Virus record (IMG/VR): IMGVR_UViG_3300035208_004923
Coordinates: 160,001 to 224,000 of that record
Strand: one strand, 5' to 3'
DNA from: a virus
Taxonomy: Duplodnaviria > Caudoviricetes
DNA: 64,000 nt
The notes under the pieces were generated by a model that had not been told where the DNA came from, ran no database searches, and saw only the letters and a list, made by a program, of their open reading frames with translations. Below, in pieces: positions 1,649 to 63,490 of this stretch; the stretch's first letter is position 1; each line of letters opens with the position of its first letter. The translations under genes and the position numbers were made by a program.

Positions 1649-2740
1649 TTATTTAGTTTCTAAGTATAAAATGTAATTATTGAATTCATATAAGAATTTT
1701 GCAATATCTTCAATTGTTAAAGTTCCGATGTTAGAAATTCTAAATGTATTTGTATTCGATACTTTTCCTGGATATATTGTAATGCCTCTTTCCTTTAAAA
1801 AGTCATGCATATCATCAAATGAATATTTTGGATGTTCCAAATCAAAAAAACTTGTTATGATAACAGACGAATGCTCTTCTGGCGTATATTGTTTAACGCC
1901 AGCAACTTTCATGCCGTTAATCAACAACGTTCTATTATTTTTATAACGATTATGTCTACCGCCAACAGTTTCACTTGTTAATTCCTTTATTGCTTGATAA
2001 AAAGCATATATTGTTTGAACAGGTGGTGTAAATCTTAATTGCAAATTTTTCTGCATGTAATCCCATTGGTCGTATACATCAAAATAACAAGTTCTTGCTT
2101 GACCTTTTAGTTCCATTAATTTTTCTCGTCTAGCAATTATAAATCCAATGCCTGCAAATCCTTGTATGCATTTATTTGAACTTCCTATTAAAAAATCAAC
2201 ATTACTTTTTGTCATTTCTATTTCATATGCACCAACAGTACTCATTGCATCAATAATAAATGTCTTGTTATTTTCTTTACATAAATTTCCTATAAAGTCA
2301 ATATCATTTAGTATTCCTGTTGTCGTTTCGCAATGAACTGTATACACATGTGTTATATCCGGATTCGTTTCAATTAATTTAGATATCATTTCATAATTTA
2401 AAACTTTATCGCCACAGTCAATTTCAAACAAACGTATAGCGTATCTTTTTGCAATTTCTGCTGCTCGTCTACCGTATGCACCGTTTGTAATAACTAGTAG
2501 AAATGAATCTTTCGGCAAAGATGATATCATCGCTTCTATTGCACCGGTACCTGATGAACCAAATAAAATTGATTCATATCGTAAATGGTCAGTTGCAACA
2601 AATGTTGGCAAATGTACCATTATTGCATTCATGATACCACCAAATTCACGTTCTCGTGGACAAATATCGTCAACAATTTGTGCTTGCTTTACGCTTTCTG
2701 ACGTATTTGCAGGCCCAGGATTTAAAAGAATTTGTTTCAT
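1649..2740 (-). CDS. aepZ: 2-aminoethylphosphonate transaminase (PhnW/AepZ family, class V PLP enzyme)
   Basis: LLNPGP, HCETTTGILN, DAMS, SSNKCIQG (PLP lysine), RFTPP and IYPGK motifs. Lies in an operon with pepM and ppd. Confidence 0.92.
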   Translation of the reverse strand: MKQILLNPGPANTSESVKQAQIVDDICPREREFGGIMNAIMVHLPTFVATDHLRYESILFGSSGTGAIEAMISSLPKDSFLLVITNGAYGRRAAEIAKRYAIRLFEIDCGDKVLNYEMISKLIETNPDITHVYTVHCETTTGILNDIDFIGNLCKENNKTFIIDAMSTVGAYEIEMTKSNVDFLIGSSNKCIQGFAGIGFIIARREKLMELKGQARTCYFDVYDQWDYMQKNLQLRFTPPVQTIYAFYQAIKELTSETVGGRHNRYKNNRTLLINGMKVAGVKQYTPEEHSSVIITSFFDLEHPKYSFDDMHDFLKERGITIYPGKVSNTNTFRISNIGTLTIEDIAKFLYEFNNYILYLETK

Positions 2741-3462
2741 TATAAGATATTGTATAAAAGTGGGAATACTCTATTAACTGCTTTATAGTAATGAATAAGA
2801 TCATCGATTTCACACCATACATAATCAGTTTTCTCTAAATTGAATTGTACGCCATATTTTTTAGTTGCTTTAACTAAAACATGTTCATATTCAATTCTTG
2901 GATTATTTTTTAAGATATCTTCAGCGAATGGTAACAATACATTATTAACAGTATTTGCTGAAATGTGAGAAATTCCTAAAAATGAATGCTCGTGATTTTC
3001 CAAATCAGATGTTAATTTCGATACATTACTCATGCAATTGTTGAAAGATTCAACATAAACTTCATCATGATCTTTTGTTATGAATGATGTTACAATAATG
3101 TCTTTGTCGTTACCTATATGGTCAAGAATCTTTGCATCATATAAAATATCACTTTCAACAATCGTACATGCACCTTTCACTTCTTTCAAACCTACATACA
3201 AAGAATATCCGCTTCCACTGTCAACGTAATTGCCATTATGAATTGTTGACACTTCTTTATATCCTTTGGCAAATTTTTCGTAGTATTCAGATTTATGTCC
3301 TGTTACAATTAATATCTTTTCATAACCTTTTTTCAATAAATTTTCAACGGACATTTCAATCAATGATTTTCCGCAGATTCTTAAAAAGCCTTTTGGCATA
3401 GTTTCAGTTAGTAAACCGACCCTGCTTCCAAGACCTGCTGCTAGTATGATTGCTGTTTTCAT
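2740..3462 (-). CDS. NTP transferase, LicC/PntC-like (probable phosphonate cytidylyltransferase)
   Basis: ILAAGLGSR...PKG N-terminal signature, ESDILY and WCEIDD. Stop overlaps the aepZ start. Confidence 0.85.
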   Translation of the reverse strand: MKTAIILAAGLGSRVGLLTETMPKGFLRICGKSLIEMSVENLLKKGYEKILIVTGHKSEYYEKFAKGYKEVSTIHNGNYVDSGSGYSLYVGLKEVKGACTIVESDILYDAKILDHIGNDKDIIVTSFITKDHDEVYVESFNNCMSNVSKLTSDLENHEHSFLGISHISANTVNNVLLPFAEDILKNNPRIEYEHVLVKATKKYGVQFNLEKTDYVWCEIDDLIHYYKAVNRVFPLLYNIL

Positions 3463-3467
3463 TATTT

Positions 3468-4601
3468 TTATTTTTTTAAAAATTTCATTAATCGTTTCTT
3501 AACTTGTACTGGTGTAACTGCTGGTCGACCTAAAGGATCTTTTGAACCAGGAACTGTTGGCACAACAATTAGCTTCAATGTTCTTTCTTTATCTTTTTTC
3601 CAATTAGTTAATGCATTTTCTAATTGGCCGTATGATCTAACAATAGCATTTTGGTAATTCATAGAAGACGCTAGTTTATTCCATGATACGTTATTCGATA
3701 ATGTAGCTTGTCCGCCTGTTGTGTCGTGAACATTATTATCAAGTAATATATGTAGCATGTTTGATGGCGCATATTCTGCAATCAATGGAAGAACACTTAA
3801 ACGCATTAATGCAGCACCGTCTCCATCAATGACATATACTTTTTTATCTGTATTCAACGCAACACCTAAGCCAATTGCACCAGCGCAACCCATCGAACCG
3901 ACCATATACAAGTTATTTTTCTTATCTTTTATATCATACAATTCTCTGCCTGTCATTCCTGTTGTTGCGATATAAACAGCATCTTTGTCAATTGTTGAAA
4001 TTGATTTAAGTACCTCATATCGAGTCATGTCCATAACTTCTTGATTCAATGTATTTGCAAAGCCAATTGGCGCAACATCTTTTAATGTTTTTTGCTTTGG
4101 AATTAACTTAACAGAATTAAAAGTATCTTTTTCAACAAGAATAAAATATGGCATATTAGTTTTTGCCATTATTGCTTTTGCTTCTGCTATCTGTTGTTTT
4201 GCAATTTCATCATCTTTCGATAAAACAACGGATTTCATTTTCATTGTTTTTATCAATTTTGCAGTAATCACGCCCATTAATTCATGTTGAGGTTCAGTGT
4301 CAGAACCGGTTCGCATACTAACAAAAACCAATGATGGAATTTTGAATATGTAATTTAATGAAGTAAGTGGGGAAACTGCATTTCCGAATCCGGAATTTTG
4401 CATCATGACAACTGTATTTCGACCTGCTATGTGTGCGCCTGCAGCTATTGCAATTGCATCACCTTCATTTGCTGCATTGTAATATTCACAATCATTTTGC
4501 GCATAATTAATTAAACTTTTCATCCAAGAGCAAGGAACTCCTGTAAAAAAATCAAATCCTTCTTGTTTTAAAAAATCTCCAAATTTTTGTGTGTCTACCA
4601 T
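3468..4601 (-). CDS. aepY: Phosphonopyruvate decarboxylase (ThDP-dependent)
   Basis: FFTGVPCS, ANEGDAIA, MQNSGFGN, EPQH, GSMG, DGDGA and NNVHDTTGGQ motifs. Confidence 0.93.
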   Translation of the reverse strand: MVDTQKFGDFLKQEGFDFFTGVPCSWMKSLINYAQNDCEYYNAANEGDAIAIAAGAHIAGRNTVVMMQNSGFGNAVSPLTSLNYIFKIPSLVFVSMRTGSDTEPQHELMGVITAKLIKTMKMKSVVLSKDDEIAKQQIAEAKAIMAKTNMPYFILVEKDTFNSVKLIPKQKTLKDVAPIGFANTLNQEVMDMTRYEVLKSISTIDKDAVYIATTGMTGRELYDIKDKKNNLYMVGSMGCAGAIGLGVALNTDKKVYVIDGDGAALMRLSVLPLIAEYAPSNMLHILLDNNVHDTTGGQATLSNNVSWNKLASSMNYQNAIVRSYGQLENALTNWKKDKERTLKLIVVPTVPGSKDPLGRPAVTPVQVKKRLMKFLKK

Positions 4602-4615
4602 ATTATGTATTTTAA

Positions 4616-5911
4616 TTATTTTGTTCCTGGTATTAATTCAAGTATATCATTTATACTCATGCATAATGTTTTATCAACATTTTCTGATTTGCCGTCTAAA
4701 AGAATTCCTTTTGCTGTTTTTAGCATTGCTGGATATGCAGAACGTAATAAATGATTTGCATAAATCACTATATTAGCACCAGCTTTTTCAAATTCATCAA
4801 TATGAATTTTATTGAAACTAGAAGGAACTACAACGATAGGTGTTTGTTTATCGAATTCTCTAAATCTTTTAATAAATTCAAATATTTCTACACCGTCTTT
4901 ATTTCTTGAATGTATCATGATAGCATCAGCACCTGCGTTAACATAAGCAAACGAACGTTCTAGTGCATCTTCTAATCCTTTTTCTAAAATTAAACTTTCG
5001 CATCTAGCAATGATCATAAAGTTTTTTGTTATCTGCGCAGCTTTACCCATTTTTATTTTATGACAGAAGTCACAAATACAATCCTGCGACTGGTCAACAT
5101 CATTTCCAAATAATGAATTTTTCTTCAAACCAGTTTTATCTTCAATTATTGCAGCAGATACGCCAACACGTTCTAAACTTCGAACTGTAAATTGAAAATG
5201 TTCAGGTTTACCGCCTGTATCGGCATCATATATCATCGGTTTTGTTGTTACCTCAAATATTTCATTTATTGTTGTAAGACGAGCAGTTGTATCAACAGCT
5301 TCAATATCAGGTTTGCCTTTCGATGTAGAATCGGTCAAAGAACTTGACCACATGCCATCAAACTGCGTGTTATCAATTTTTGTGTGTTCGACAATTAATC
5401 CGCTTAAAGCATTATGAACTTCAAGTATTCTTAGAATTTTCTTTTCACGCAATAATCTTCGCAATGAATTACTTCTAACTGTTGATGTTATACCTAATGC
5501 AGTTACTTGTTCTTTTATATTGATACTGTTGATTTCTTTTGAATATTCTGGCTCAATTAATTCGCCATGAATTTCTAATATGTAATCTAATACTTCATCT
5601 CTATATTTCTTCAGGTGATTTGTTTTCCAATCAGTTCCATGAACAACTATAGTAGCACCAATTTTTTTTAAATTTGGTAGGCATGATGCAGATTCTTGTG
5701 GAATAATTTCAGACACGCACCCAATTGCGGCAATTGCAATTCTTCTATTTTCATATGATAAATAAGGAACGTCGTTTATTTCCCTACATGCATCTTCAGT
5801 TAGTAATCCTACAATTACTTTGCCATGTTTACTTGCTTCTGTTAAAATTGATACATGACCTGCGTGTATCAAATCAGCAATCATGCTAACATAAACTATT
5901 GTTTCATTCAT
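4616..5911 (-). CDS. aepX: Phosphoenolpyruvate mutase (PepM/AepX) with an N-terminal cytidylyltransferase domain
   Basis: Diagnostic EDKx5NS motif (EDKTGLKKNS), plus WSSSL and DADTGG. N-terminal DLIHAGH is a HIGH-type motif. Confidence 0.95.
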   Translation of the reverse strand: MNETIVYVSMIADLIHAGHVSILTEASKHGKVIVGLLTEDACREINDVPYLSYENRRIAIAAIGCVSEIIPQESASCLPNLKKIGATIVVHGTDWKTNHLKKYRDEVLDYILEIHGELIEPEYSKEINSINIKEQVTALGITSTVRSNSLRRLLREKKILRILEVHNALSGLIVEHTKIDNTQFDGMWSSSLTDSTSKGKPDIEAVDTTARLTTINEIFEVTTKPMIYDADTGGKPEHFQFTVRSLERVGVSAAIIEDKTGLKKNSLFGNDVDQSQDCICDFCHKIKMGKAAQITKNFMIIARCESLILEKGLEDALERSFAYVNAGADAIMIHSRNKDGVEIFEFIKRFREFDKQTPIVVVPSSFNKIHIDEFEKAGANIVIYANHLLRSAYPAMLKTAKGILLDGKSENVDKTLCMSINDILELIPGTK

Positions 5912-5931
5912 TTGTTTTTGTATAAAGTGTA

Positions 5932-5973
5932 AATAAAAATTAGCATAATTTTTTAGATTATGCTAATTTTATT
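5932..5973 (-). terminator. Intrinsic terminator downstream of nrdJ
   Basis: Inverted repeat AAAATTAGCATAAT / ATTATGCTAATTTT with a T-run on the minus strand. Confidence 0.65.
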
Positions 5974-5981
5974 ATATATTC
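5972..5981 (-). promoter_or_regulatory. Putative late promoter GAATATATAA upstream of the phosphonate operon
   Basis: Exact copy of a 10-mer found 11 times in intergenic positions upstream of minus-strand genes. Confidence 0.6.
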
Positions 5982-8007: not shown

Positions 8008-9399
8008 TTATATTTTTTCTAACTCAGCTTTCAATTTCTTAAGTTCCTGTATTTCATTTTGAACAGCAAACATTTGTTTCTTTGCGGATTTTCTTTGTCC
8101 ATAAAAATCAGTTAAAATTGTTCTAAATACAGAATCTTCGGCATCATTAAAATACGCGCCAGATGCAGTGTATGTAATGTTTTCAATATCTGGTTTCTTT
8201 GCTTCTTTACCCATGAATGCTTCAGGTGACATATTCCATTGTCGCATAATAGATGGGTACAGTGATGCAAAGTCAAAAGAAGCAACCCAATCGTATATTC
8301 CTTTTACGGGTGGAAATACAAAGGCACCTTCGTAACCTGTTTTATTTACGTTTCGGTTTTTGATTGTTGGGAATATTCGATTTCTGCCGTAGAATTCACG
8401 AGTCATCACAGATTCAGCCATTGCGATTGGTGAGAATGCTCTATTTGCTTCAACCTTTGTAATGTTACCCAATTTTAAATATGTTGACATTGTTGATAAC
8501 TTTGCATCAATCAATTTTACAAGAATTGAATCGACGCCATTATAGTAAACATATTGTTCAAAATCAGATTCATATAAATCCTGAAGTGTTCCGTTGTACG
8601 GAATTTTACCCATACCCAATGCTGCAGTTGCAACATATTGTAGCGTATTGTTATCTTTGAAGATTACTCTATCCCATTTTTTATAAAGTTCCATGTAATC
8701 GACAACAACTCTGTGCATCGGTAATTCTTCACGACCTACAAGTTTGCCATTTACTGCTGCAACAGATGGGTCAATTGATAAATTACGACAACGATTTACA
8801 AGATACGCCCAGTCAAAGTTTATAAAGTTCCATCCGGTAATCAATGGCATTTTTTGTATTGCCTTATTGAAAAATGAATATAACAAATCATATTCTGTTT
8901 TGAAATAAACATATGAAAACTTAATTTCTGGATAATTATGATCTGTTAAGTACTTGTTTATTTTGATTTCGATATTTCTTATCTGAACGGGAAGCAATGG
9001 TTTTGTTCCTAATACAGCAAGCATATTATCGTGCGCAAATGATATTGCGGTTACCTTATGTCTTGCAACAGATGGTTTTGGCCATTCATCATCAACTTCA
9101 GTTTCAATATCCACAAAGAATTTCTTTGGGTCATTTTTTGAATAAATCTTTTCTTTAATGTAATCTGGCTGTTTCATGAGAATTTCCTCAATTCTCCATT
9201 TGTTCAAAAAGAAAGCTTTTTTCTTTTGAACTAATTTGCCATCCCAACTTTTGAATGAAGGTTCCGCTTTTCCTACGGTATATGGAACCCATTCAAAAAA
9301 ATCCTCTTGTTCTATAGGAATTATTTGGAAAGCAACATCTCCATTTTCATCGAAGTAAGATACCTTAAGGTTTTTCTCTACTTGTTCGACGTTAATCAT
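8008..9399 (-). CDS. Family B DNA polymerase, N-terminal subunit (3'-5' exonuclease plus motif A; split gp43-like)
   Basis: ExoI VDIETE, ExoII GWNFINFD, ExoIII YNGVD and motif A DFASLYPSIM. The ORF ends before motifs B and C. Confidence 0.88.
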   Translation of the reverse strand: MINVEQVEKNLKVSYFDENGDVAFQIIPIEQEDFFEWVPYTVGKAEPSFKSWDGKLVQKKKAFFLNKWRIEEILMKQPDYIKEKIYSKNDPKKFFVDIETEVDDEWPKPSVARHKVTAISFAHDNMLAVLGTKPLLPVQIRNIEIKINKYLTDHNYPEIKFSYVYFKTEYDLLYSFFNKAIQKMPLITGWNFINFDWAYLVNRCRNLSIDPSVAAVNGKLVGREELPMHRVVVDYMELYKKWDRVIFKDNNTLQYVATAALGMGKIPYNGTLQDLYESDFEQYVYYNGVDSILVKLIDAKLSTMSTYLKLGNITKVEANRAFSPIAMAESVMTREFYGRNRIFPTIKNRNVNKTGYEGAFVFPPVKGIYDWVASFDFASLYPSIMRQWNMSPEAFMGKEAKKPDIENITYTASGAYFNDAEDSVFRTILTDFYGQRKSAKKQMFAVQNEIQELKKLKAELEKI

Positions 9400-16451: not shown

Positions 16452-18410
16452 TTAAAATTTTAATGCAGAAATTATTTGGTGTATAGGTGCAAATGCGCCT
16501 GTTAATTTGAACAATCTTCCACCATAATTGAAACAAATGCCTTCAGATGGAAATATTGCATCGATGCCACCTGCATTTTCCAATGATTGTAAATGAATTT
16601 TCAATTTTGCTAAAGCGCCTTCATCGCCTGATTTATTTATATCGTCTATTGCTTTATTAAAGTCAGCTTTTAATTGATTAAGTGATGCATCAGGATTTGG
16701 CGCAAGTATTGTTTGTAAACTTTTAATTATTGCAACACCTACTTGTACAAAAATTGTTCCAACGATTCTTTTTATTTCGCCACCTATTTTTGCGGCGTCC
16801 TTTGCTTCAAAATCTTTGGCCCATGCTAATGTTTTTTCATCAGGAATGTTATCTTTGTTTATTCTAAATGATTTGTCATCAGTTAGCCATCGGCCAATCA
16901 AACCTGCCAATTGAACATCTGTTAATGAATAACCCATTTTTAATATTCTATCTTTCCATTCAGCAGTATAAAAATCTAAGAACGTGTTATTATCTTTAAA
17001 ATTCCATTTTGCTTTTATTTCATCAACCTTTGCATTGAAATACGTTTTTTCTTTATCAAAATTTACGCCATCTTTTAATTTAACATAAGGCGAGCCTTGT
17101 ATTTTAAATGTTTTTTCGATATCTTTATTAATATCTGCTATCATTTTTGCAAGCTTATCTGCCGCTGCACGATCTTGTGATAATGGATTGCCGGCTGTAT
17201 CATATTCAGTCACGTTATGAAATACCATTAAGTTTGTATTGTACGGTACCGTAATCATTGCAGGCGAATAGATTACTTCAAGATGCATGAAGCATTTTCC
17301 ATTTTTAAATATACTTTCAAGATCTTTTTTGTTAAGATCTTTTATTGCATCTTCAAGATCATCGAATGCAAGGTTATATGCATCAGCAATAGGTCCTCTA
17401 CCTGCAAATTTTGCCATTAACGCATTTTTATCAACTGCGTTTTCACCAAAATTCTTATATTCACCTTTATTTCTTGCTGTAACAATTTTTCCATCTTTGT
17501 AACTAATTGCAATTGTAACGCCATCAGTTTTTTCAACGGTATTCTCTAATTTGCCTGAAAGTCCAAGATTTATAATTTCTTTCATTTGTCCAAATGTAAT
17601 TGTCAAATCATCATAAACATGTTCAAGATGACCGAATGCGCCGCCTTCATCAATTCCTGCAAAACCTTTAAATGCATTTGGACCCATAAACATTCCATCC
17701 AAGTCTTTCCATCCATTCGGATAATATTCCGCGTAATCTTTACAAACGGCAGGATGCGTTTCATTAGATTCTTTTATTGAATTTAATTTAGTATTCAATA
17801 AATTAAAAATGCCTGCATCTAGTTTCTTGTATATTTTTTTAAAGAAATTTTCTTTATCTTTTATTGCGTGGCTATTATCTCTGAAATAGTTGCGTACTTC
17901 TGTTGCACTCATGTTAACAGATGGCGAATTTTCTTGTACATAGATATATCCTTTTGTTTCATATCCATCAAGTTCAACATTGTCATTGTATATGTCAAAG
18001 TATTTTCCTCTTGTTAATCGTTCAGCATCTTTACCACCAAGAACAGTAATCAATGCAGTATCTTTTGTAAACATTGTAAGCAATTCGGTAGGTGCATAAG
18101 TATTTTTTACTTTAACAATTTTTGATGGCGGTATTTTAAACATTTTTGTCATTATCAATTTTTTCTCATCAAAAGACAAGAAATGATTATCGTCATACGC
18201 TGCCTTGCCTACTTCAGATTGATTAAGATCTCCGGTTGTTATGTATACATTTTCTTTGCCAAATTTTGCAACTAATTGTTCATATATATCGAAATGCCCG
18301 ATATGAAAAGGCTGAAATTTGCCACTGTAACTAACAACAAAATTTCCATTTTTATTTGTTTCATTAATAAATTGTTCCAGCGTTTTAAGTTTGCTTATTT
18401 CTATTTTCAT
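16452..18410 (-). CDS. Fusion of a HIGH-family nucleotidyltransferase and a ligase-fold (DUF6267-like) domain
   Basis: GKFQPFHIGH and MSATEVR in the N-half; GHLEHVYDD, VEKTDG, SEGICF and FKLTG in the C-half. Leader KLKTLEQFINE. Confidence 0.75.
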   Translation of the reverse strand: MKIEISKLKTLEQFINETNKNGNFVVSYSGKFQPFHIGHFDIYEQLVAKFGKENVYITTGDLNQSEVGKAAYDDNHFLSFDEKKLIMTKMFKIPPSKIVKVKNTYAPTELLTMFTKDTALITVLGGKDAERLTRGKYFDIYNDNVELDGYETKGYIYVQENSPSVNMSATEVRNYFRDNSHAIKDKENFFKKIYKKLDAGIFNLLNTKLNSIKESNETHPAVCKDYAEYYPNGWKDLDGMFMGPNAFKGFAGIDEGGAFGHLEHVYDDLTITFGQMKEIINLGLSGKLENTVEKTDGVTIAISYKDGKIVTARNKGEYKNFGENAVDKNALMAKFAGRGPIADAYNLAFDDLEDAIKDLNKKDLESIFKNGKCFMHLEVIYSPAMITVPYNTNLMVFHNVTEYDTAGNPLSQDRAAADKLAKMIADINKDIEKTFKIQGSPYVKLKDGVNFDKEKTYFNAKVDEIKAKWNFKDNNTFLDFYTAEWKDRILKMGYSLTDVQLAGLIGRWLTDDKSFRINKDNIPDEKTLAWAKDFEAKDAAKIGGEIKRIVGTIFVQVGVAIIKSLQTILAPNPDASLNQLKADFNKAIDDINKSGDEGALAKLKIHLQSLENAGGIDAIFPSEGICFNYGGRLFKLTGAFAPIHQIISALKF

Positions 18411-18482
18411 TTTATTGAATTATATTATGTGGATAATTAGATTCTGACATACTTGAAAATCTTCTAATTCTCATATTTTCTA

Positions 18483-19286
18483 TTAGTAACGGCCGTATGC
18501 AGATTGATTTTCAAAAGAACCTGCTATGAATTCTTTGCCATCAACTTTAACAGTAACAACCGATGACCATCTTTGTGTATCTATTTGAACAAAACCGATA
18601 GAGTTATGAATAGTGTCACTACTAATGCTTGTGTTATTTTTATCAATTTCAATTTTTGATGTAGGTGTAACTTTTACTTTATTTTTCTTAAGTCCGTCTA
18701 GCGTCATTGTTAATACTTTAGTAAAATCTGAACCAGCATAGGCAGAATAACTTGTCTTTCTTGCTACAGCTACTGCTACATTTAATAACGATGCAGCTGC
18801 ATCAGATGTCCATGATTTTAATACATTTATAATATTTGTTAATGCATCTCTCATTGCAGGTAAATCTTTATTTGCTGCTTTAAATTCAGGTTCTATTCTT
18901 TTTATTGCATCTGACAAAGGACCTTGCGATCTTCCGCCTGGCGCAGCATCAGTGTATAAAAATGCAACAAATTCAATAATAGGTGCAGATGCAACACCTG
19001 TTTTTAAATATGTAGTTGCAGATTTAATAACTTCTTTAAATTTTTCAACTGGTGCTTCATCTCCAAAGTATGTATATCGCAATCCTGCTGTTGGCCATCC
19101 TGCTTCATAATGAAACAATGAACATACTGTTCTTATTTCACCTTTTAAATAAGTTTTAAATGTAGTTGTTTTTTCAAGACCGTGACGAGTTGCAAACTCA
19201 AGTCCTGATTCCTCAATTGCTTCATTAATTGCATTCGATTTTTCTATGAATATAAATTCATTCAATGATGGTATTCTATTTTTCAT
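18483..19286 (-). CDS. Hypothetical protein with the leader motif
   Basis: Begins MKNRIPSLNEF...AINEAIEES. Confidence 0.7.
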   Translation of the reverse strand: MKNRIPSLNEFIFIEKSNAINEAIEESGLEFATRHGLEKTTTFKTYLKGEIRTVCSLFHYEAGWPTAGLRYTYFGDEAPVEKFKEVIKSATTYLKTGVASAPIIEFVAFLYTDAAPGGRSQGPLSDAIKRIEPEFKAANKDLPAMRDALTNIINVLKSWTSDAAASLLNVAVAVARKTSYSAYAGSDFTKVLTMTLDGLKKNKVKVTPTSKIEIDKNNTSISSDTIHNSIGFVQIDTQRWSSVVTVKVDGKEFIAGSFENQSAYGRY

Positions 19287-19306
19287 AATATGTTTTTATT
19301 TATTTT

Positions 19307-20467
19307 TTACTTGATTATGTTATGAGGATAATTAAATTCTCTATTTTGGAACTTTAATATTTTTTCGTTACGAATATTGCCACTGCAAATATCTATTGCG
19401 TTCATTATCGTACAATCATTTGACCATGATTCTTCGCCAATCATTAGCGTTTCTATGTATGGAATTAAACTTAAAGAAATTTCTCGTGTTGCTGAATTCC
19501 ATAAATAAGATGGCGAATGGTCAACTGAATAGTATGTTATATTTTTTCCTACTTTAAATGTAGGATCATCGAATGATGTTGGTTTTGCAAAATAAAATCC
19601 CATGTTCTCATCACAACTTATATCAATTATTGATGTAAATTGTTTTAGAGAATTTGCTTGTTTTATATTAGATATAAACATCATTGGGTTGGTGACATCT
19701 TGCAATACGCCATTAACTATGATATCACTACTTCGAAGTTCTTCGATAAGATGTGATATTTTTCCTTCTGTTGAAATAACTGAAAGGTAATCAGTTTCAG
19801 GAAAGTTAATCATTTGGTTATAATATACGTCTGGGTTTTTATCTGCTATTAAATGAACAGGGCGTTTTGTGAATACATGAATGTTATTAAATCCCCGTCC
19901 TTGTAATGCATAAATTGCACCTTTACTGACAGAGCCGTATCCTAAAATAGATACTTTTTTTCTAGGTCCGTACATTCCGTCTAAACCTTGTAATCCTAAA
20001 TAATGAATAACACCTGCATATCCTGCAAGTTCATTGTTTCGATAAAATATGTGCAATGATTTTTCTCCATTATTCCATGTATGCATTTCTTCCCATGCAA
20101 TTAAAGTCAATTTTTTTGCAATTGCAATCTCAGCGATTTCAAATTGTTGAATTGCATGAGACCAACCGCAAAGAATTTGGCCGTCTTTCATTTGTTTTAA
20201 ATCGTCAATTACAGGTTTTGGCAATATGATCATATCACACATTTCAAATAAAGAATCACGAGATACAATATTGTAACCTGCTTTTATAAAATCTTCATCA
20301 GGAATTCCGAAATTTGTTCCGTAATTTTCTTCTAGATAAATTGAAGATATTAAATTATAACTTATCAATGATAATAAGTGTTGCGGATGAATCGGCAATC
20401 GTTTTTCGTTTTCCTTTTTAGATGTTTTAAAAAGGCCAGTCTTTAAATATTTATTTGCCGTATTCAT
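19307..20467 (-). CDS. ceo: N5-(carboxyethyl)ornithine synthase (AlaDH/PNT superfamily)
   Basis: KENEKRLPIHP, AWEEM, FYRNNELAGYAGV, GYGSVSKG Rossmann motif, DISCD and VDHSPS. Confidence 0.85.
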   Translation of the reverse strand: MNTANKYLKTGLFKTSKKENEKRLPIHPQHLLSLISYNLISSIYLEENYGTNFGIPDEDFIKAGYNIVSRDSLFEMCDMIILPKPVIDDLKQMKDGQILCGWSHAIQQFEIAEIAIAKKLTLIAWEEMHTWNNGEKSLHIFYRNNELAGYAGVIHYLGLQGLDGMYGPRKKVSILGYGSVSKGAIYALQGRGFNNIHVFTKRPVHLIADKNPDVYYNQMINFPETDYLSVISTEGKISHLIEELRSSDIIVNGVLQDVTNPMMFISNIKQANSLKQFTSIIDISCDENMGFYFAKPTSFDDPTFKVGKNITYYSVDHSPSYLWNSATREISLSLIPYIETLMIGEESWSNDCTIMNAIDICSGNIRNEKILKFQNREFNYPHNIIK

Positions 20468-21554
20468 CTATGATTGGATATTTTGCTAATATTCCTTCAT
20501 AATCCATTGGCCATTTTGAAGATAATATTTCTTCTTTGTATTCAGGCCAATAAATTGAATGACCTTGTGACATATATTTTCTCCAAAGTTCTTCTTTGAA
20601 CGAATCTGGCAATTCTCTTCGGTAAAAATCTTTATAAACTTCCATGTATACTTCACAAAGTTTTACACTTCCTAATCCTGTTGCACTATTCGTTTCAAGT
20701 ACCCATATTTTACCTTGTTTATCAACAACCACATCCAAAGACCAAAGGCCAAGTTCAATTTCTTTTCGTACTTCACCAGATATTCGATAAATCTCATTCA
20801 TGAAATCATCAGGAATTTTATTCATATCTTGATATGCATATATGAATTTTACCTTTTCATCAACTTTTTTTGTTCGTATTGATTGGTCTTCTTTTATTGT
20901 TGGTACACGTTCATTTATAATAAAACATTTATCATTTAAAAATACGCATCGGTATTCTCTATCAAAATCAATGAATTGAGAATATAAATCAAATGATTTT
21001 TCTTCTCCTCTTAATTCAAATGTTTCAGGCTCTTTTTTAAGATCTGCTGCTGTATCAATTTTTTTTATGCCTAATCCCGAATGTCCTTTTGCTATTTTTG
21101 CGATAACAGGAAATCCCACAGCACCTTCGATTGCTTCTTCTCGTTTAAAAACTGTTTTTGGAAGCCAATCGCAATTTGCAAATATTTTCGAGAATTGTAC
21201 TTTATCGCCTGATTTTAACATTGGTTCAGGAAGATTATACATTCTTTTTGGATTTACATTAAATTTATTAATAAATTGTAAAGATTCCTTTGAATTACCG
21301 CCATAATAAATAACTGGCAGATTTCTAGGTATAATGATATCATCACGTTTTACATCTGTTGCTGTGTAATATGATATGTACAATTGGTCAATTGCTGCTT
21401 TATTGATTGCTGCTTCTCTTTCTGATGTATCTCCTGATAATGCTGCAAGATCTGCTCCTTGTCTGATGAAAATAATTTTCTTGTCGAATTGGTCACTTAA
21501 ACCTAATGTAATGAATTCTTCAAGCGTTTTTAGTTTGCCTAATTGTATTGCCAT
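20451..21554 (-). CDS. ATP-grasp ligase (RimK-like) with the leader motif
   Basis: DK, LPKT, FPVIAK, GHSGLGI, QFID, EYR, SLDVV and VLETNS motifs. Leader KLKTLEEF. Confidence 0.82.
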   Translation of the reverse strand: MAIQLGKLKTLEEFITLGLSDQFDKKIIFIRQGADLAALSGDTSEREAAINKAAIDQLYISYYTATDVKRDDIIIPRNLPVIYYGGNSKESLQFINKFNVNPKRMYNLPEPMLKSGDKVQFSKIFANCDWLPKTVFKREEAIEGAVGFPVIAKIAKGHSGLGIKKIDTAADLKKEPETFELRGEEKSFDLYSQFIDFDREYRCVFLNDKCFIINERVPTIKEDQSIRTKKVDEKVKFIYAYQDMNKIPDDFMNEIYRISGEVRKEIELGLWSLDVVVDKQGKIWVLETNSATGLGSVKLCEVYMEVYKDFYRRELPDSFKEELWRKYMSQGHSIYWPEYKEEILSSKWPMDYEGILAKYPIIDEYGK

Positions 21555-59026: not shown

Positions 59027-59413
59027 TTATACTATAATTTTGTAAGCACCGTTTGCTTCTTTAAAACCTTTTTTTCTCATTACAGTAATTACAACAAGAA
59101 TTAATTCATTATTCTTTCTTGTAAGATTCGCAACAACATTTAAGTTATTTGCTGCATTTGAAATGCAATACTGTTTTCCAACAGTATCAATACCTTTTAA
59201 TTGTCTTTCTCCAATTTCTTCAATTGCTTTTTGTGTCGTATCTAAAATATCTTGGTTTGTAATTACATCACCGCCTTCATCTGTGTGACGAAACTTACGT
59301 TCTTCAGCATGTACAGTAGTATCAATTTCGATTTCAATTTTAATGTCATCGACTAGATTTCCTATTTTGCCTTCCGACATAAATTCATCAAAACTTGGTA
59401 TTCTTTTGTTCAT
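59027..59413 (-). CDS. Leader-motif protein with a possible RelE/DUF4258-like RNase fold
   Basis: MNKRIPSFDEFMSEG leader, TVHAEER and LVVITVMRK. Confidence 0.6.
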   Translation of the reverse strand: MNKRIPSFDEFMSEGKIGNLVDDIKIEIEIDTTVHAEERKFRHTDEGGDVITNQDILDTTQKAIEEIGERQLKGIDTVGKQYCISNAANNLNVVANLTRKNNELILVVITVMRKKGFKEANGAYKIIV

Positions 59414-60597: not shown

Positions 60598-60882
60598 TTA
60601 TTTATTTTCAATTTCGTGTCCGTTTGCTATAAGAATTTTTGCAATTATATTTAAAACACCGGATTGATGATGTGTTGCACCATAATGCATTATTATGCTA
60701 GCTATATCAGATCTGAATATAATTTTCTCATCTTTATCTGCTATATTAATTCCGAAATAATCATAAAAAACTTTCTTTAAAATGTCATATGTCCATTCAG
60801 ATTCTATATACGTTTTGTATGTTCTTGGTGAAACAAACATTTCATTTACATATTCGTTTAATGTAGGTATTCTATTTTTCAT
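60598..60882 (-). CDS. Hypothetical protein with the leader motif
   Basis: Begins MKNRIPTLNEYVNEM. Confidence 0.7.
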   Translation of the reverse strand: MKNRIPTLNEYVNEMFVSPRTYKTYIESEWTYDILKKVFYDYFGINIADKDEKIIFRSDIASIIMHYGATHHQSGVLNIIAKILIANGHEIENK

Positions 60883-60883
60883 A

Positions 60884-61411
60884 CTAATATAATTTATCTT
60901 TTAAGGATTGATATTTTTCTTCTGCTTTATCAGCTTTTATTTGTAATGGCGCTAATTCTTTTTTGATTTTCTCAATTTTTGTATTTAATTTATTCAATTC
61001 ACCACCTATGCGATTTGCTTCTTTGTCTTTTTCTGCATCTGTTTTAAGATGACCAATAGTTTCTTCTTGGTCATGCATCAAGTTATTATAGTCATCTTGG
61101 TAACTTTTAAGTTCGTATTTCAAATCGCTAACTTGTCCATCTAACGCATAATAAATGTCTTCTGCTTTTTTGATTTCTGTTCTTAATTTATCATCATCAT
61201 TTTTATTTGCTAAATATTGCAAATCATAATCACTGTATTCTTTATTCGATAAGCTAAACTTTCCGTTTTCTTTGCGTATCCATCCATGCTGCGTTTTCAT
61301 GAATTTTTCGCCTTGCACTTCAATGAATCCACCAATTGGAGTTTTTGCAAACCCTGCTGGTAATTTTCCTTCATTTAAAAATTCGTCGAATGTTGGTATT
61401 CTTTGTATCAT
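60884..61411 (-). CDS. Coiled-coil protein with the leader motif
   Basis: Begins MIQRIPTFDEFLNEG. Confidence 0.7.
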   Translation of the reverse strand: MIQRIPTFDEFLNEGKLPAGFAKTPIGGFIEVQGEKFMKTQHGWIRKENGKFSLSNKEYSDYDLQYLANKNDDDKLRTEIKKAEDIYYALDGQVSDLKYELKSYQDDYNNLMHDQEETIGHLKTDAEKDKEANRIGGELNKLNTKIEKIKKELAPLQIKADKAEEKYQSLKDKLY

Positions 61412-61415
61412 ATAT

Positions 61416-62030
61416 TTATTTTATTTCTTTAAATTCTTTTCCATTAAATTTGAACCATCCACCCATACTTGTATTTGGGCCACACTCCATGTCAATTTCA
61501 ACAGATATTTGTTTTGCATCGTTATAACCATTTTTTGCAATTGCATCAGCTACAAATTCATTTTCTAACATATCAGTATCAAAAGGATTTGAATCACCAA
61601 GACAAATAAAAATTTTATTAGATTCTTTATGCCAATAAGTTATCCCATATTCGTGATTGCAAATAATTTCAATTGCTTTGGCGTAATTTACAAGTTTTTC
61701 TTCATCTATCAGCGAAGAACTGCTTTCAAAAATATATGATTCATTAACCGGTTCTTTAATTGTTTCGATACTTTTTATAAAATCAGGACCATCACCATCC
61801 CATCCAAAAGATTTTTTGTATTTGCCTGCATCAGGGTCTACAACAATTTCGTATGAATGACCAGTATTGCCTATGCCAGCAATATGTTCTAGCATTTTTA
61901 ATAAACTGCCTGATGGATTTCTTGCAACAATTTTTATAACTATATCGTTATCAGCTATTTCTTTTAATTTTGAATTTACACTAAAATCTTCTTTTATGAA
62001 TTCATCAATAGTCGGTATTCTTTGTATCAT
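61416..62030 (-). CDS. Two-domain hypothetical protein with the leader motif
   Basis: MIQRIPTIDEFIKED leader and an internal PVNESYIFES linker. Confidence 0.7.
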   Translation of the reverse strand: MIQRIPTIDEFIKEDFSVNSKLKEIADNDIVIKIVARNPSGSLLKMLEHIAGIGNTGHSYEIVVDPDAGKYKKSFGWDGDGPDFIKSIETIKEPVNESYIFESSSSLIDEEKLVNYAKAIEIICNHEYGITYWHKESNKIFICLGDSNPFDTDMLENEFVADAIAKNGYNDAKQISVEIDMECGPNTSMGGWFKFNGKEFKEIK

Positions 62031-62048
62031 ATAAAAATGAATATTATT

Positions 62049-62780
62049 TTAATGGAATATCATGAACCAGTCTGGTGAGTTTTCAGAATCAATCTTTTCT
62101 AATAGTTCTTTTATTTCGTCTTGTCCTTCAGATTTTATACCCTCACCATTTATTGTTACGCCACCTGGTAAGTTATATGTAAACATTGTTAAAATTCTTC
62201 CTAATGATATTTTTGCTTGCGCTGTACAATATCTTTGGAATGTCCAATCTTCAAACATTTTGTCTTCTGCTATTTTTATATATGCTTGCATGAAAACATC
62301 AGCTTTAGGGTCTCTACCTAAAATAACTAAACGTCGTGTGTTGTGATTAAAGTCATACGCAATTCTATCTAAGAAAAATGCTCTAGATAAATCCCAATAA
62401 GATTCATATGCAGTTCTTAATACCATATCATCAGCGTTGAATGGCGATAAATAAATTTCCTGCGCAATCATTTTCTCTGCAGAGAAATCTGCACCAAAAT
62501 ACGTGATTCTAGAATTACCTTTGATTTCTTTTACTTCATAAACAGAAACAACACAATCAGGTAATTGAACGGAACGCGTTTTTTTGAATTCTGCAGATTG
62601 GAACACATCTTTCTTAATTACAAAATAATGAGTTTCTACCGAATATTGATAGTTGATGTATGCCCATTTTAATGCCAAGTCAATAATACGATTGAACTCT
62701 TTGTCTGGAATTGCGTATGGCAATGCGCATGCAACTGTGAGTTCATCTTTGATTTGTTGAATAAATTCTTGTCTAGTCAT
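62049..62780 (-). CDS. Neck protein (T4 gp13-like)
   Basis: QRYCTAQAKISLGRIL...LPGGVTING.GI..EG..E...L signature. Confidence 0.8.
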   Translation of the reverse strand: MTRQEFIQQIKDELTVACALPYAIPDKEFNRIIDLALKWAYINYQYSVETHYFVIKKDVFQSAEFKKTRSVQLPDCVVSVYEVKEIKGNSRITYFGADFSAEKMIAQEIYLSPFNADDMVLRTAYESYWDLSRAFFLDRIAYDFNHNTRRLVILGRDPKADVFMQAYIKIAEDKMFEDWTFQRYCTAQAKISLGRILTMFTYNLPGGVTINGEGIKSEGQDEIKELLEKIDSENSPDWFMIFH

Positions 62781-62794
62781 TATACGACATTATT

Positions 62795-63490
62795 TTATTT
62801 CCAGTCTTCTGGAAGTTCGTCAGGTTTACCTAAAGCTTTCGCTCTTTTTATTATGTGTTTTTTTGTTTCTGCTTTATTTGCACCTGTTCTGCCAAATGCA
62901 CGTATTGCGTTTTGCAAATCTTTAACAGTTTCAATTGGATATGAGCCATCTTCCATTGCAAAACCTTTATCTGTTAGTTTTTGTCTTTCTTCAGATGAAA
63001 ATTCCCGTTCAACAATATATGATATATGACTGAATGGCACATTTATTTCTTTTCCTTTATATTTAACAACAGCAAAATCTTCAGACCTTGATGATACACG
63101 ATTTATAACAGTTTCTTCTCCCAGTTCATTACTTGTTCCTGGGACAACAAATTCTATCTTATCACCTTTTGTTAATAAACGGATATCTTTATTTTCTAAT
63201 AATTCGCTTTCAAGAACAGCTTCAAGATCTTTTTTAACGAATTGTGTATTTGCATATATTCGCCATTCATCAAATTGATTTTGCATCATTGCAGCAATTT
63301 TTTCGGAACCTTTATAAATTTCATAATTCTTTAATCCATTCTTTTGGTTTATCTTATTGCATTTATATCCTTTTAATTTATTAGTTTCAATTGCTTTTAC
63401 TAATTTATCACTAGGTACCTCAATAAAATTAGAATCTTGATTTATTGATTCGTTTATAAATTCGTCTAATGTTGGTATTCTTTTTTTCAT
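62795..63490 (-). CDS. Leader-motif protein with a C-terminal DUF6582-like domain
   Basis: MKKRIPTLDEFINES leader and AMEDGSYPI...DLQNAIRAFGR...HIIKRAKALG. Confidence 0.7.
   Translation of the reverse strand: MKKRIPTLDEFINESINQDSNFIEVPSDKLVKAIETNKLKGYKCNKINQKNGLKNYEIYKGSEKIAAMMQNQFDEWRIYANTQFVKKDLEAVLESELLENKDIRLLTKGDKIEFVVPGTSNELGEETVINRVSSRSEDFAVVKYKGKEINVPFSHISYIVEREFSSEERQKLTDKGFAMEDGSYPIETVKDLQNAIRAFGRTGANKAETKKHIIKRAKALGKPDELPEDWK

Follow-up and report, generated by a model that had tools for sequence, protein, structure and literature searches.

Phosphonyl-tailoring (Pnt) pathways are well known in bacteria. In the clusters of Treponema denticola (Tde1413-1415), Atopobium rimae and Olsenella uli, PntC makes CMP-AEP, the activated form of 2-aminoethylphosphonate (AEP); LicD-like genes are typical neighbours in bacteria, and some clusters have a separate nucleotidyltransferase in addition to the fused one (Rice et al. 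2019, PMC6697681). The same authors drew the analogy with the Lic1 pathway (LicA-D) of Haemophilus influenzae and Streptococcus pneumoniae (PMC6697681). As for viruses, a Ppm-Ppd-AEPT neighbourhood has been reported in an NCLDV metagenome-assembled genome (MAG), while no Ppm was found among 364 huge phages (Li and Horsman 2022, PMC8942020). In the literature, we found no account of the Pnt pathway in phages.

Here, we describe a complete and intact gene set for AEP synthesis and CMP activation on C1, a 425-kb contig of an uncultured phage. The chemistry is that of the known bacterial Pnt pathway; what is new is its carriage by a phage, together with a LicD bearing an N-terminal leader that resembles a phage capsid-targeting sequence. 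Both enzymes and logic are as in bacterial Pnt clusters and Bacteroides fragilis aepXYZ (Ppm, Ppd, AEPT, and PntC, with a LicD-like gene nearby), while the 425-kb phage carrier, the phage promoter motif, and the site between replication and cargo genes set C1 apart. In the window (i.e., the whole 64,000-nucleotide stretch that was analysed), the cassette consists of four co-directional genes on the minus strand, with intergenic gaps of 14, 5, and -1 nt. Its neighbours are phage genes, encoding a class II RNR, PolB, a gp32-like protein, a helicase, and a baseplate wedge protein. The first-pass annotation had described four tightly coupled phosphonate genes embedded between phage genes, and this description holds. 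Three of the four enzymes (the PepM fusion, Ppd, and the AEP transaminase) pass NCBIfam equivalog cut-offs, and the diagnostic motifs were all found.

The gene at 4616-5911 encodes a bifunctional 431-residue fusion of a cytidylyltransferase (CyTase) and a PEP mutase (PepM), in which an HxGH domain of the Fom1 CyTase type (PF01467, residues 13-115) precedes PepM (PF13714, residues 150-404). This protein scores 401.8 bits against TIGR02320 (cut-off 319.55), displays HAGH at residues 16-19 and EDKTGLKKNS at 257-266, and matches both the N-domain of Fom1 (5X3D, E 2.2e-24) and PEP mutase (1M1B, E 5e-41), which confirms the earlier assignment as an EDKx5NS-type PEP mutase fused to a cytidylyltransferase. 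Bacterial Ppm frequently has a PF01467 or PF12804 nucleotidyltransferase attached to it, the phage fusion being of the PF01467 kind. The domain order is also that of Fom1, which activates hydroxyethylphosphonate en route to the antibiotic fosfomycin; in the phage, by contrast, the AEP transaminase, PntC, and LicD indicate tailoring, and fosfomycin genes are absent. The next gene (3468-4601) encodes phosphonopyruvate decarboxylase (Ppd), a thiamine-diphosphate enzyme with 368.5 bits against TIGR03297 (cut-off 312.5) and the cofactor motif GDG...NN at residues 260-290.

The remaining two genes share a best solved relative, the characterised Tde1415 (6PD1), in which PntC and AEPT are fused, whereas they are separate genes in the phage. 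The 240-residue protein encoded at 2740-3462, previously called a LicC/PntC-like NTP transferase, hits PF12804 and PF00483 and proves to be a LicC-fold AEP cytidylyltransferase of the PntC type, since its match to Tde1415 PntC (E 2.5e-43, residues 2-236) is far better than that to LicC (1JYK, E 9e-14). Its E103 and E193 align with Glu104 and Glu196 of Tde-PntC, which touch the amine of AEP (PMC6697681), and it has Glu at a position where LicC has Asp. The protein encoded at 1649-2740 is a class V, PLP-dependent 2-aminoethylphosphonate:pyruvate transaminase (AEPT), with 399.9 bits against TIGR03301 (cut-off 360.8), matches to the AEPT domain of 6PD1 (E 2.2e-83) and to PhnW (1M32, E 5.8e-80), and an SSNKCIQG lysine that aligns with the SNK lysine of the structure chain. 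At the level of sequence, the four proteins therefore support the previously suggested route from PEP through phosphonopyruvate, phosphonoacetaldehyde, and AEP to CMP-AEP.

The cassette is headed by the promoter-like motif GAATATATAA (5972-5981, minus strand), which directly abuts the RNR stop codon. The window contains 11 exact copies of GAATATATAA, each of them on the minus strand, where about one is expected and none of 100 shuffles reached 11; the count is 53 for C1 as a whole, whereas the remaining 1.18 Mb of the bin has 19. For nine of the 11 copies, a start codon follows 14-34 nt after the motif, and the genes that they head include a tail-fibre-like gene, genes for proteins of 2015 and 1546 residues, and the baseplate operon, while no copy was found in the window upstream of PolB, RNR, the helicase, or the gp32-like gene. 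The claim that the phosphonate operon has the same motif as baseplate and tail genes thus stands, with the qualification that at pepM the motif ends 61 nt upstream of the ATG and that an AT-rich 14-bp hairpin followed by a U-run (5927-5970, minus strand) lies in between. This hairpin has a minimum free energy of -12.2 kcal/mol (z -5.08), equalled in none of 200 shuffles. It may serve to terminate RNR transcription, act as an attenuator, or stabilise the 5'-UTR, and its position between motif and pepM could make it a brake on expression. In the related contig L003, the order is terminator, motif, pepM, with CAATATATAA 26 nt upstream of pepM, while in L006 RNR and pepM are together under the same motif. 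From GAATATATAA to a single terminator (C1:156809-156832), the transcription unit spans ~9.1 kb, with no internal copy of the motif. Since the unit starts at a motif that also heads structural operons, it is probably expressed late; the earlier suggestion of a late promoter fits this distribution of the motif in the window but sits less easily with L006, where the motif drives RNR as well as pepM.

The same ~9.1-kb unit contains, as the fourth gene 3' of AEPT, a gene for a 248-residue LicD/FKRP-like phosphotransferase (C1:159233-159979, equivalent to L007:14233-14979, minus strand). For the window, which begins 21 nt after this gene ends, the first-pass annotation was correct to report no visible acceptor transferase, and the gene was missed because of the window edge alone; the recommended search for LicD in the rest of the genome finds it, as the sole LicD across the 1.6-Mb bin. 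The protein scores 20.1 bits against PF04991 alone and 25.3 with its frame neighbours (cut-off 22.6), matches the Mf1 cholinephosphotransferase family NF045866 (E 5e-12), and has the invariant DxGTLLGxxRD...DxD. Its AF2 model (pLDDT 82) resembles FKRP (Foldseek E 1.3e-6; VIA Z 15.4, rmsd 3.3 over 166 residues). Three minus-strand genes of other or unassigned function lie between AEPT and LicD. One encodes a 251-residue protein (859-1614; 43 representative homologues, AF2 pLDDT 87.6) with no assigned function and no convincing fold match; as it adjoins RNR and DUF4326 in L101, a contig without the cassette, it probably belongs to the backbone and not to the enzymes of the pathway. The others encode a calcineurin-like phosphoesterase (Metallophos, PF00149, E 4.5e-9; 1-520, truncated where the window begins, complete gene at C1:159969-160520) and a DUF4326 protein (531-899; PF14216, E 9.7e-17), a predicted ADP-ribose-related domain of the rhodanese-phosphatase superfamily (PMC9503650, PMC7824862). 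Since two of the three occur beside RNR without the cassette, the adjacency of LicD and cassette may be partly historical.

The LicD-like protein also has a phage-type N-terminus. On C1, 58 ORFs begin with M..RIP, a shared leader that we consider a putative capsid-targeting tag, and in a search with an HMM of this leader LicD-like N-termini outscored all 3812 control N-termini, the window phage's own LicD leader being degenerate (7.7 bits). Bacterial LicD neighbours have no such extension, while the four genes that follow LicD up to the terminator have canonical leaders. The capsid-targeted cargo of T4 (IPI-III and Alt, cleaved by the gp21 protease) similarly has a short N-terminal tag, ending in hydrophobic-x-Glu, that is common to many unrelated proteins. 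The C1 leader differs from the T4 tag in sequence, and we know of no LicD-family phosphotransferase among T4 cargo. C1 does encode a prohead protease domain of the T4 gp21 type (Peptidase_S77). The concept of the capsid-targeting sequence (CTS) is taken from the literature (PMC3012670).

How widespread is this arrangement? At least five independent contigs of related phages (L003, L006, L104, L105, and L107) share the block PepM-Ppd-(methyltransferase)-PntC-AEPT-unknown-DUF4326-(Metallophos)-LicD, which in two of them lies beside the same PolB and RNR, so that the synteny sought in related phages is present. In an unrooted tree, also called for by the first-pass annotation, phage PepM forms a separate clade (100% SH-aLRT), nearest to uncultured Campylobacterales with which it shares a 99%-supported group. 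Campylobacterales cassettes (L020-L025) have the same PF01467-PepM fusion, 63-65% identical to that of the phage, and the same gene order, PepM-Ppd-(PntC)-AEPT-LicD. In contrast, identity is low for Ppd (~31%), PntC (38%), AEPT (43-45%), and LicD (27-29%), which suggests that the cassette has long been part of the phage lineage or else is a mosaic. There is a very small chance that a cellular block was mis-assembled onto phage DNA or that a cellular contig was taken for a phage, as C1 was binned in a MAG with archaeal rRNA and the binning around it is unreliable. Yet the PolB-RNR-pepM and DUF4326-Metallophos-LicD junctions recur in independent assemblies from other samples (PolB, RNR, and dUTPase 80-84% identical), the only N runs in C1 are ~160 kb and ~255 kb away, the cassette has the GC content of the remainder of the window (0.31-0.32), the GAATATATAA in front of it is a phage-specific motif, and phage PepM has a clade of its own. 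Recurrence and phage-like GC in effect rule out a chimeric host insert. The archaeal rRNA of the MAG makes mis-binning of C1 the probable explanation, and structural relatives point to a Bacteroidota host.

Gene identities, catalytic motifs, operon architecture, and conservation in related phages are established for the cassette. We infer, with a probability of about 0.72, that the phage has a functional Pnt pathway, in which activities, timing, and coupling to LicD are predicted. PEP mutase would convert PEP to phosphonopyruvate, Ppd would draw this unfavourable step onward by forming phosphonoacetaldehyde, AEPT would yield AEP, and the PntC-type enzyme would combine AEP with CTP into CMP-AEP, from which the LicD-like enzyme would transfer aminoethylphosphonyl to an acceptor hydroxyl, releasing CMP. 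Like many bacterial clusters, the phage has a second cytidylyltransferase besides the PntC-type enzyme, namely the Fom1-type domain of the PepM fusion. The logic is that of Lic1, where a LicC-fold enzyme makes a CMP-linked donor and LicD modifies a glycan, except that Lic1 uses imported choline whereas the phage would make its phosphonate de novo, without a LicA kinase or LicB transporter. It is improbable that the pathway stops short of transfer, providing free AEP or soluble phosphonates for phosphorus sequestration or host enzyme inhibition, or that the transaminase runs in the catabolic direction. Its reaction is reversible in PhnW, the distant relative L102 retains a lone AEPT-like gene beside RNR (TIGR03301, 263 bits, below the cut-off), and AMG surveys list viral 'phosphonate metabolism' genes; but PepM and Ppd serve biosynthesis, the presence of two cytidylyltransferases alongside a co-transcribed LicD fits only an activated, transferred phosphonate, and no phosphonatase, C-P lyase, or exporter was found in the transcription unit.

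As for the acceptor, we tentatively favour a phage-side target, either a particle-associated glycoconjugate or a cargo protein. The leader-like N-terminus of LicD and the C1 cassette of glycosyltransferase and nonulosonic-acid genes (NeuB, GT25, GT2, and a CMP-sugar synthetase-RgpF), which also answers the earlier call to look for glycosyltransferases elsewhere in the genome, tilt towards such a target without proving it. The canonical leaders of the four genes after LicD, the gp21-type protease domain, and, in the relative L002, the linkage of the cassette to GT25, Gly_transf_sug, and a second LicD point the same way. Against it, a packaged LicD entering a new cell would find no phage-made CMP-AEP. 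A less likely acceptor is a glycan of the host envelope, be it lipo-oligosaccharide, capsule, a teichoic-acid-like polymer, or an S-layer glycan precursor; such late surface remodelling would mask receptors against superinfection or keep progeny off debris. To our knowledge, all characterised LicD-family enzymes use glycans or glycolipids (Lic1 pathway, Mf1, and FKRP), and the phage protein matches Mf1. Bacterial Pnt clusters serve the tailoring of the cell surface (PMC6697681), and the GT25 linked to the cassette in L002 belongs to a family of the LPS-core type. However, bacterial homologues lack the leader-like N-terminus, no flippase, polymerase, or CDP-alcohol transferase was found near the C1 cassette, and a lytic jumbo phage has little time for exporting a new glycan to the surface. 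DNA is a decidedly unlikely acceptor, aminoethylphosphonyl in that case capping the hydroxymethyl of a hydroxymethylated pyrimidine, or its sugar, with a phosphatase-resistant, cationic group. The cassette does sit amid DNA-metabolism genes (RNR, PolB, dUTPase, ligase, and topoisomerase II). Elsewhere, sugar genes of C1 are adjoined by a thymidylate-synthase homologue, a kinase-like gene, and a C5 methylase, and a putative capsid-addressed transferase would lie beside DNA. Nonetheless, we know of no LicD-family enzyme with a nucleic acid as substrate, the 248-residue protein has no evident DNA-binding domain, and the motif of its unit is found in front of structural genes, not of replication genes.

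Other viruses offer partial parallels. In the IMG/VR contig L100, terminase and portal are immediately followed by a PepM-CT fusion (TIGR02320, 323.5 bits), Ppd, and a nucleotide-sugar transferase; unlike in C1, AEPT, PntC, and LicD are missing in the stretch examined. A protein of Vibrio phage Va2 is divergent (89 bits, EDKx6NS) and doubtful as a PEP mutase, while the NCLDV precedent concerns eukaryotic hosts. In all three, phosphonate genes lie beside sugar-related genes.

Four ORFs on the minus strand of the window, separated by gaps of 14, 5 and -1 nt, had been read in the first-pass annotation as a fused PEP mutase (PepM), a phosphonopyruvate decarboxylase (Ppd), a nucleotidyltransferase and a 2-aminoethylphosphonate (AEP) transaminase (AEPT). 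This gene content is real and intact, since it is borne out by equivalog scores, motifs and matches to solved relatives, 6PD1 among them. The mutase part of the 431-aa fusion (4616-5911) scores 401.8 bits against TIGR02320, with an equivalog cut-off of 319.55, and displays at residues 257-266 the motif EDKTGLKKNS, which is of the EDKx5NS type that tells mutases from other enzymes of the isocitrate-lyase superfamily (PMC6697681). By score and motif the ORF is a PEP mutase, with conversion of PEP to phosphonopyruvate as its predicted activity. The domain N-terminal to the mutase matches PF01467 with 35.4 bits (cut-off 21), has HAGH at residues 16-19 and matches the cytidylyltransferase domain of Fom1 (5X3D, E 2.2e-24); fusions of PepM and pairs of nucleotidyltransferases are both frequent in bacteria (PMC6697681). 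Ppd (3468-4601) scores 368.5 against TIGR03297 (equivalog cut-off 312.5) and has both ThDP domains (PF02776 and PF02775), with the GDG-x-NN ThDP-Mg motif at residues 260-290. The third ORF (2740-3462, 240 aa) encodes a LicC-fold enzyme of the PntC type, for which there is no equivalog model. It matches PF12804 (E 3.2e-12), and its closest solved relative is the AEP cytidylyltransferase domain of Treponema denticola Tde1415 (6PD1, E 2.5e-43), pneumococcal LicC (1JYK) being a far weaker match (E 9.1e-14). Its E103 and E193 align with Glu104 and Glu196 of Tde-PntC, which contact the AEP amine and are Asp in LicC (PMC6697681). In fold and Glu pair the enzyme is a PntC, and a preference for AEP is predicted. 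Finally, the PhnW/AepZ-type AEPT (1649-2740) scores 399.9 against TIGR03301 (equivalog cut-off 360.8), has Tde1415 as its best structural match (6PD1, E 2.2e-83; 1M32 follows at E 5.8e-80) and aligns the Lys of SSNKCIQG with the PLP-binding SNK lysine of 6PD1.

These genes are set in phage DNA. The 425,361-bp contig C1 (31% GC), from which the window is taken as C1:160001-224000, encodes, within the window, a baseplate wedge protein, a T4-type helicase, a gp32-like protein and several very large proteins known only as PHROGs; a class II ribonucleotide reductase (RNR) and a B-family polymerase (PolB) adjoin the cassette, and an NAD-dependent ligase and topoisomerase II subunits lie just upstream of the window, in which no tRNAs were found. 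An alternative genetic code was rejected, as code 11 gives a normal coding density in C1 and in its metagenomic bin. The possibility, raised in the first-pass annotation, that the block is a chimeric host insert failed to hold. The GC content of the cassette (0.31-0.32) matches that of the window, the nearest runs of N are more than 150 kb away, and when the closest PepM and LicD homologues were looked up by exact sequence, the contigs retrieved were independent, came from other samples and shared the gene order of C1. A test of synteny in related phages had been proposed in the first-pass annotation; two of these contigs, L003 and L006, keep the upstream genes as well. Their PolB, RNR and dUTPase are 81-82%, 81-84% and 80-83% identical to those of C1, with 71-74% for PepM, 55-62% for Ppd, 39-67% for PntC, 52-58% for AEPT and 67-68% for LicD. 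PolB itself (window 8008-9399) has only 463 aa, covering the exonuclease domain and the first third of the polymerase domain; its length is identical in L003 and L006, and the rest of a split polymerase may be encoded at another place.

The cassette is probably expressed from a late, or at least non-early, promoter class. The motif GAATATATAA occurs 11 times in the window where about one copy is expected, on the coding strand every time, and 53 times in C1 vs 19 times in the other 1.18 Mb of the bin. For nine of the 11 window copies, a start codon follows 14-34 nt after the end of the motif. As the first-pass annotation had it, the motif preceding the cassette also precedes baseplate and tail genes: it heads the baseplate-wedge operon, a tail-fibre-like gene and the genes for proteins of 2015 and 1546 aa. 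We assign it to a putative non-early class because it stands before these structural genes, and no copy was found before the genes for PolB, RNR, the helicase and the gp32-like protein. A further copy heads an ATP-grasp ligase gene in the region 16452-21554, which also encodes an AlaDH/PNT-like dehydrogenase and a 652-aa protein that begins with an HxGH nucleotidyltransferase domain and whose 450 C-terminal residues have no assignment. From the copy at 5972-5981 to C1:156809-156832, where the first intergenic terminator-like hairpin is found, there is no further copy of the motif, even as a 9-mer, and the next one follows that hairpin. The predicted transcription unit therefore spans about 9.1 kb and 12 genes. 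The copy of GAATATATAA and the ATG of pepM are separated by an AT-rich hairpin of 14 bp that has a U-run (-12.2 kcal/mol, z -5.1). L003 has a terminator first, then the motif and then pepM, and in L006 the gap between RNR and pepM is 6 nt and the motif is placed before RNR.

The 12-gene unit includes a candidate acceptor transferase. That none is visible, as the first-pass annotation put it, is correct within the window, but a gene for a 248-aa LicD-like protein (C1:159233-159979) lies 21 nt beyond its edge, following AEPT, a 251-aa protein, DUF4326 and a calcineurin-like phosphoesterase whose gene runs across that edge. For the 251-aa protein, neither Pfam, NCBIfam nor PHROG gave an assignment, and no solved structure matched it by sequence or fold. 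Against PF04991, the LicD-like protein scores 20.1 bits alone and 25.3 bits with neighbouring matches in frame (gathering cut-off 22.6), and PF04991 is precomputed in all seven of its close homologues. It also matches NF045866, the Mycoplasma Mf1 cholinephosphotransferase model, with E 5e-12 and 46.4 bits, far under the equivalog cut-off of 225. We take D-x-G-T-L-L-G-x-x-R together with a DxD metal motif to be the signature of LicD sequences. The motif DxGTLLGxxRD...DxD is invariant in our alignment of homologues (D62, G64-G68, R71, D72, D79 and D81), down to a 395-aa homologue of 28% identity, and is likewise present in the LicD neighbours of Campylobacterales clusters. The AlphaFold model (pLDDT 82.3) matches FKRP, a LicD-family CDP-ribitol transferase, with a Foldseek E of 1.3e-6; in VIA it aligns with the FKRP catalytic domain (306-486) with Z 15.4 and an rmsd of 3.3 Å over 166 residues, the runner-up family reaching 10.1. 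The search for LicD suggested in the first-pass annotation found no second one anywhere in the bin, and no LicD-like relatives were matched among GenBank phages. A parallel search for CDP-alcohol phosphatidyltransferases, one of which a phosphonolipid route would need, found none on C1, the sole match in the bin being on a cellular contig. The predicted coupling of the LicD-like protein to the CMP-AEP donor rests on predicted cotranscription and conserved synteny.

What the activated phosphonate might be attached to is approached through an N-terminal leader. Fifty-eight otherwise unrelated C1 ORFs start with M..RIP (consensus about M-K-x-R-I-P-T-L-D-E-F-I-N-E), for example in the window at 59027-59413 and 60598-63490 and at C1:156837-159217, and among ATG starts in other contigs there are three loose matches only. 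The leader is carried by the four genes directly 3' of the LicD-like gene; a family search with the 242-, 144-, 273- and 120-aa genes after the LicD-like gene found none. With a leader HMM, six of eight close LicD homologues scored above all 3812 control N-termini; neither the upstream LicD copy of the related phage contig L002 nor the distant P0128 ranked when scored. The window phage's own copy is degenerate (7.7 bits), and an L002 copy scores 23.7 bits. This extension of about 20 residues is missing from the bacterial LicD neighbours. C1 also encodes a Peptidase_S77 domain, of the T4 gp21 prohead protease type (C1:282172-282525, in a 689-aa ORF), and in T4 itself unrelated proteins are loaded into the head by a short leader (PMC3012670). 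A leader-tagged LicD would join two otherwise separate phage features, a cargo-tag system and small-molecule metabolism.

The evidence tilts towards a predicted acceptor on the phage side, because of the LicD leaders, the sugar-gene neighbourhood in L002 and glycan genes of C1. The genes that surround the cassette in L002 are GT25, a DXD sugar transferase, methyltransferases and two LicD genes, with PhoH and Acb1-like phage genes also nearby. The glycosyltransferases sought at the suggestion of the first-pass annotation are found on C1 at about 244-250 kb, where NeuB, GT25, GT2 and a CMP-sugar synthetase-RgpF fusion are encoded. A thymidylate-synthase homologue, a kinase-like protein, an MptE-like protein and a C5 DNA methylase are encoded beside them (C1:242596-250962, L109:6596-14962), and the phage's own glycan-building genes thus adjoin base-modification genes. 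All LicD-family enzymes known to us transfer a phospho-alcohol to a sugar hydroxyl. Alternatively, the phosphonate may serve to remodel the host envelope or to modify DNA. We regard as unlikely a more specific version, in which the leader loads LicD into the capsid and phage-made CMP-AEP is used there on packaged DNA (for example on a hydroxymethyl-pyrimidine or a sugar on it) or on internal cargo proteins. If true, it would be the first case of a virion or nucleic acid that carries a phosphonate, and would offer the phage a new means, proof against phosphatases, of escaping host nucleases or other defences. More generally, if the acceptor belongs to the particle or is DNA, such a modification of virions or nucleic acids would be of a new kind. 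In L002 and L003, a class I SAM methyltransferase is inserted between ppd and pntC (L002:5921-6595 and L003:9741-10436), which may N-methylate AEP to a phosphonate analogue of choline; the window phage has none there, the gap being 5 nt.

Phosphonates are a large, poorly sourced pool of organic phosphorus, and those of bacteria are believed to shield the cell surface, in part from phages. This picture would be reversed by a phage whose predicted route leads all the way from PEP to a phosphonate activated for transfer; among prokaryotic viruses such an auxiliary pathway would be of a new class, and its compact gene set (five genes plus the acceptor) offers a way to ask what viruses use C-P chemistry for. 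The chemistry is that of the known Pnt pathway; of its carriage by phages we found no published description, and Li and Horsman detected Ppm (PepM) in none of 364 huge phages and in one NCLDV MAG (PMC8942020). The phage clade is small in the collections searched, with six close PepM clusters and seven close LicD clusters, and the only close PepM proteins in GenBank phages are on two short human-faecal "Bacteriophage sp." contigs (48% identity). A single-protein scan of IMG/VR for PepM returned nothing, and an alignment-based scan, which used two peptide patterns only and which divergent mutases can escape, returned one contig of 48 kb (IMGVR_UViG_3300031552_000007, L100). There, terminase, portal, a PepM-cytidylyltransferase fusion (EDKVGPKRNS), Ppd and a nucleotide-diphospho-sugar transferase follow one another (L100:4325-12981), making it by gene content a second predicted phage case that is independent of the C1 clade. 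Two annotated candidates were not convincing as mutases, the "prpB" of an Acinetobacter phage and the "PEP mutase" of Vibrio phage Va2 (89 bits, EDK-x6-NS). In Va2, a cultured phage (MW073017.1), the latter (L110:3893-5197) and a thiamine-diphosphate protein (L111:6838-7938) flank RNR genes.

The PepM tree proposed in the first-pass annotation was built with 91 sequences. In this quick-search, unrooted tree, all six proteins of the phage clade group together on a long stem (100% SH-aLRT), nested within a larger group with 99% support that also takes in sequences of uncultured Campylobacterales, SAR86, Thioalkalispiraceae and Caenarcaniphilales. Identity to Campylobacterales is 63-65% for PepM, about 31% for Ppd and 27-29% for LicD; the cassette may have been acquired whole or assembled as a mosaic, with transfer in either direction. 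These nearest bacterial clusters have the order PepM-Ppd-(PntC)-AEPT-LicD, with LicD directly after AEPT, which is the arrangement described by Rice et al. for bacterial phosphonyl tailoring (PMC6697681). The cassette seems to have been inserted into a phage region that is conserved, since the backbone occurs without it in L101 (RNR-251aa-DUF4326) or with an AEPT-like gene alone in L102. In the latter (L102:2-4367), an NrdJ-type RNR is followed by a single AEPT-like transaminase (263 bits for TIGR03301, below cut-off) and then by a homologue of the 251-aa protein, and the stretch examined lacks PepM, Ppd and PntC.

A 1179-aa protein of the phage has relatives in uncultured huge phages (LR756500-LR756503 and LR745206), Prevotella Lak phages, Sphingomonas phage PAU and jumbo phages of Tenacibaculum, Chryseobacterium and Flavobacterium, none of which are among the PepM matches. 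The cultured ones among these relatives suggest Bacteroidota as the host group. The bin (G000; see C3:11905-13341 and C5:42067-45282) was rejected as a guide to the host. Its SSU rRNA fits the archaeal model best (1307.6 bits), its rpoB scores below the bacterial cut-off, all 48 of the other genomes examined in the archaeal genus lack a relative of the 1179-aa protein, and no 22-mer match suggests a CRISPR-spacer link between the bin and C1. Because of these results we treat C1 as most likely mis-binned, by composition, into the MAG of a small-genome archaeon, which it inflates to 1.6 Mb. In the archaeal genus, four of 36 sampled genomes (G009, G008, G036 and G002) have their own PepM-cytidylyltransferase fusion and Ppd (L013-L016). 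These are about 50% identical to those of the phage and lie elsewhere in the tree, near Ignavibacteria and Bacteroidales; one of the four loci has an in-frame TGA.
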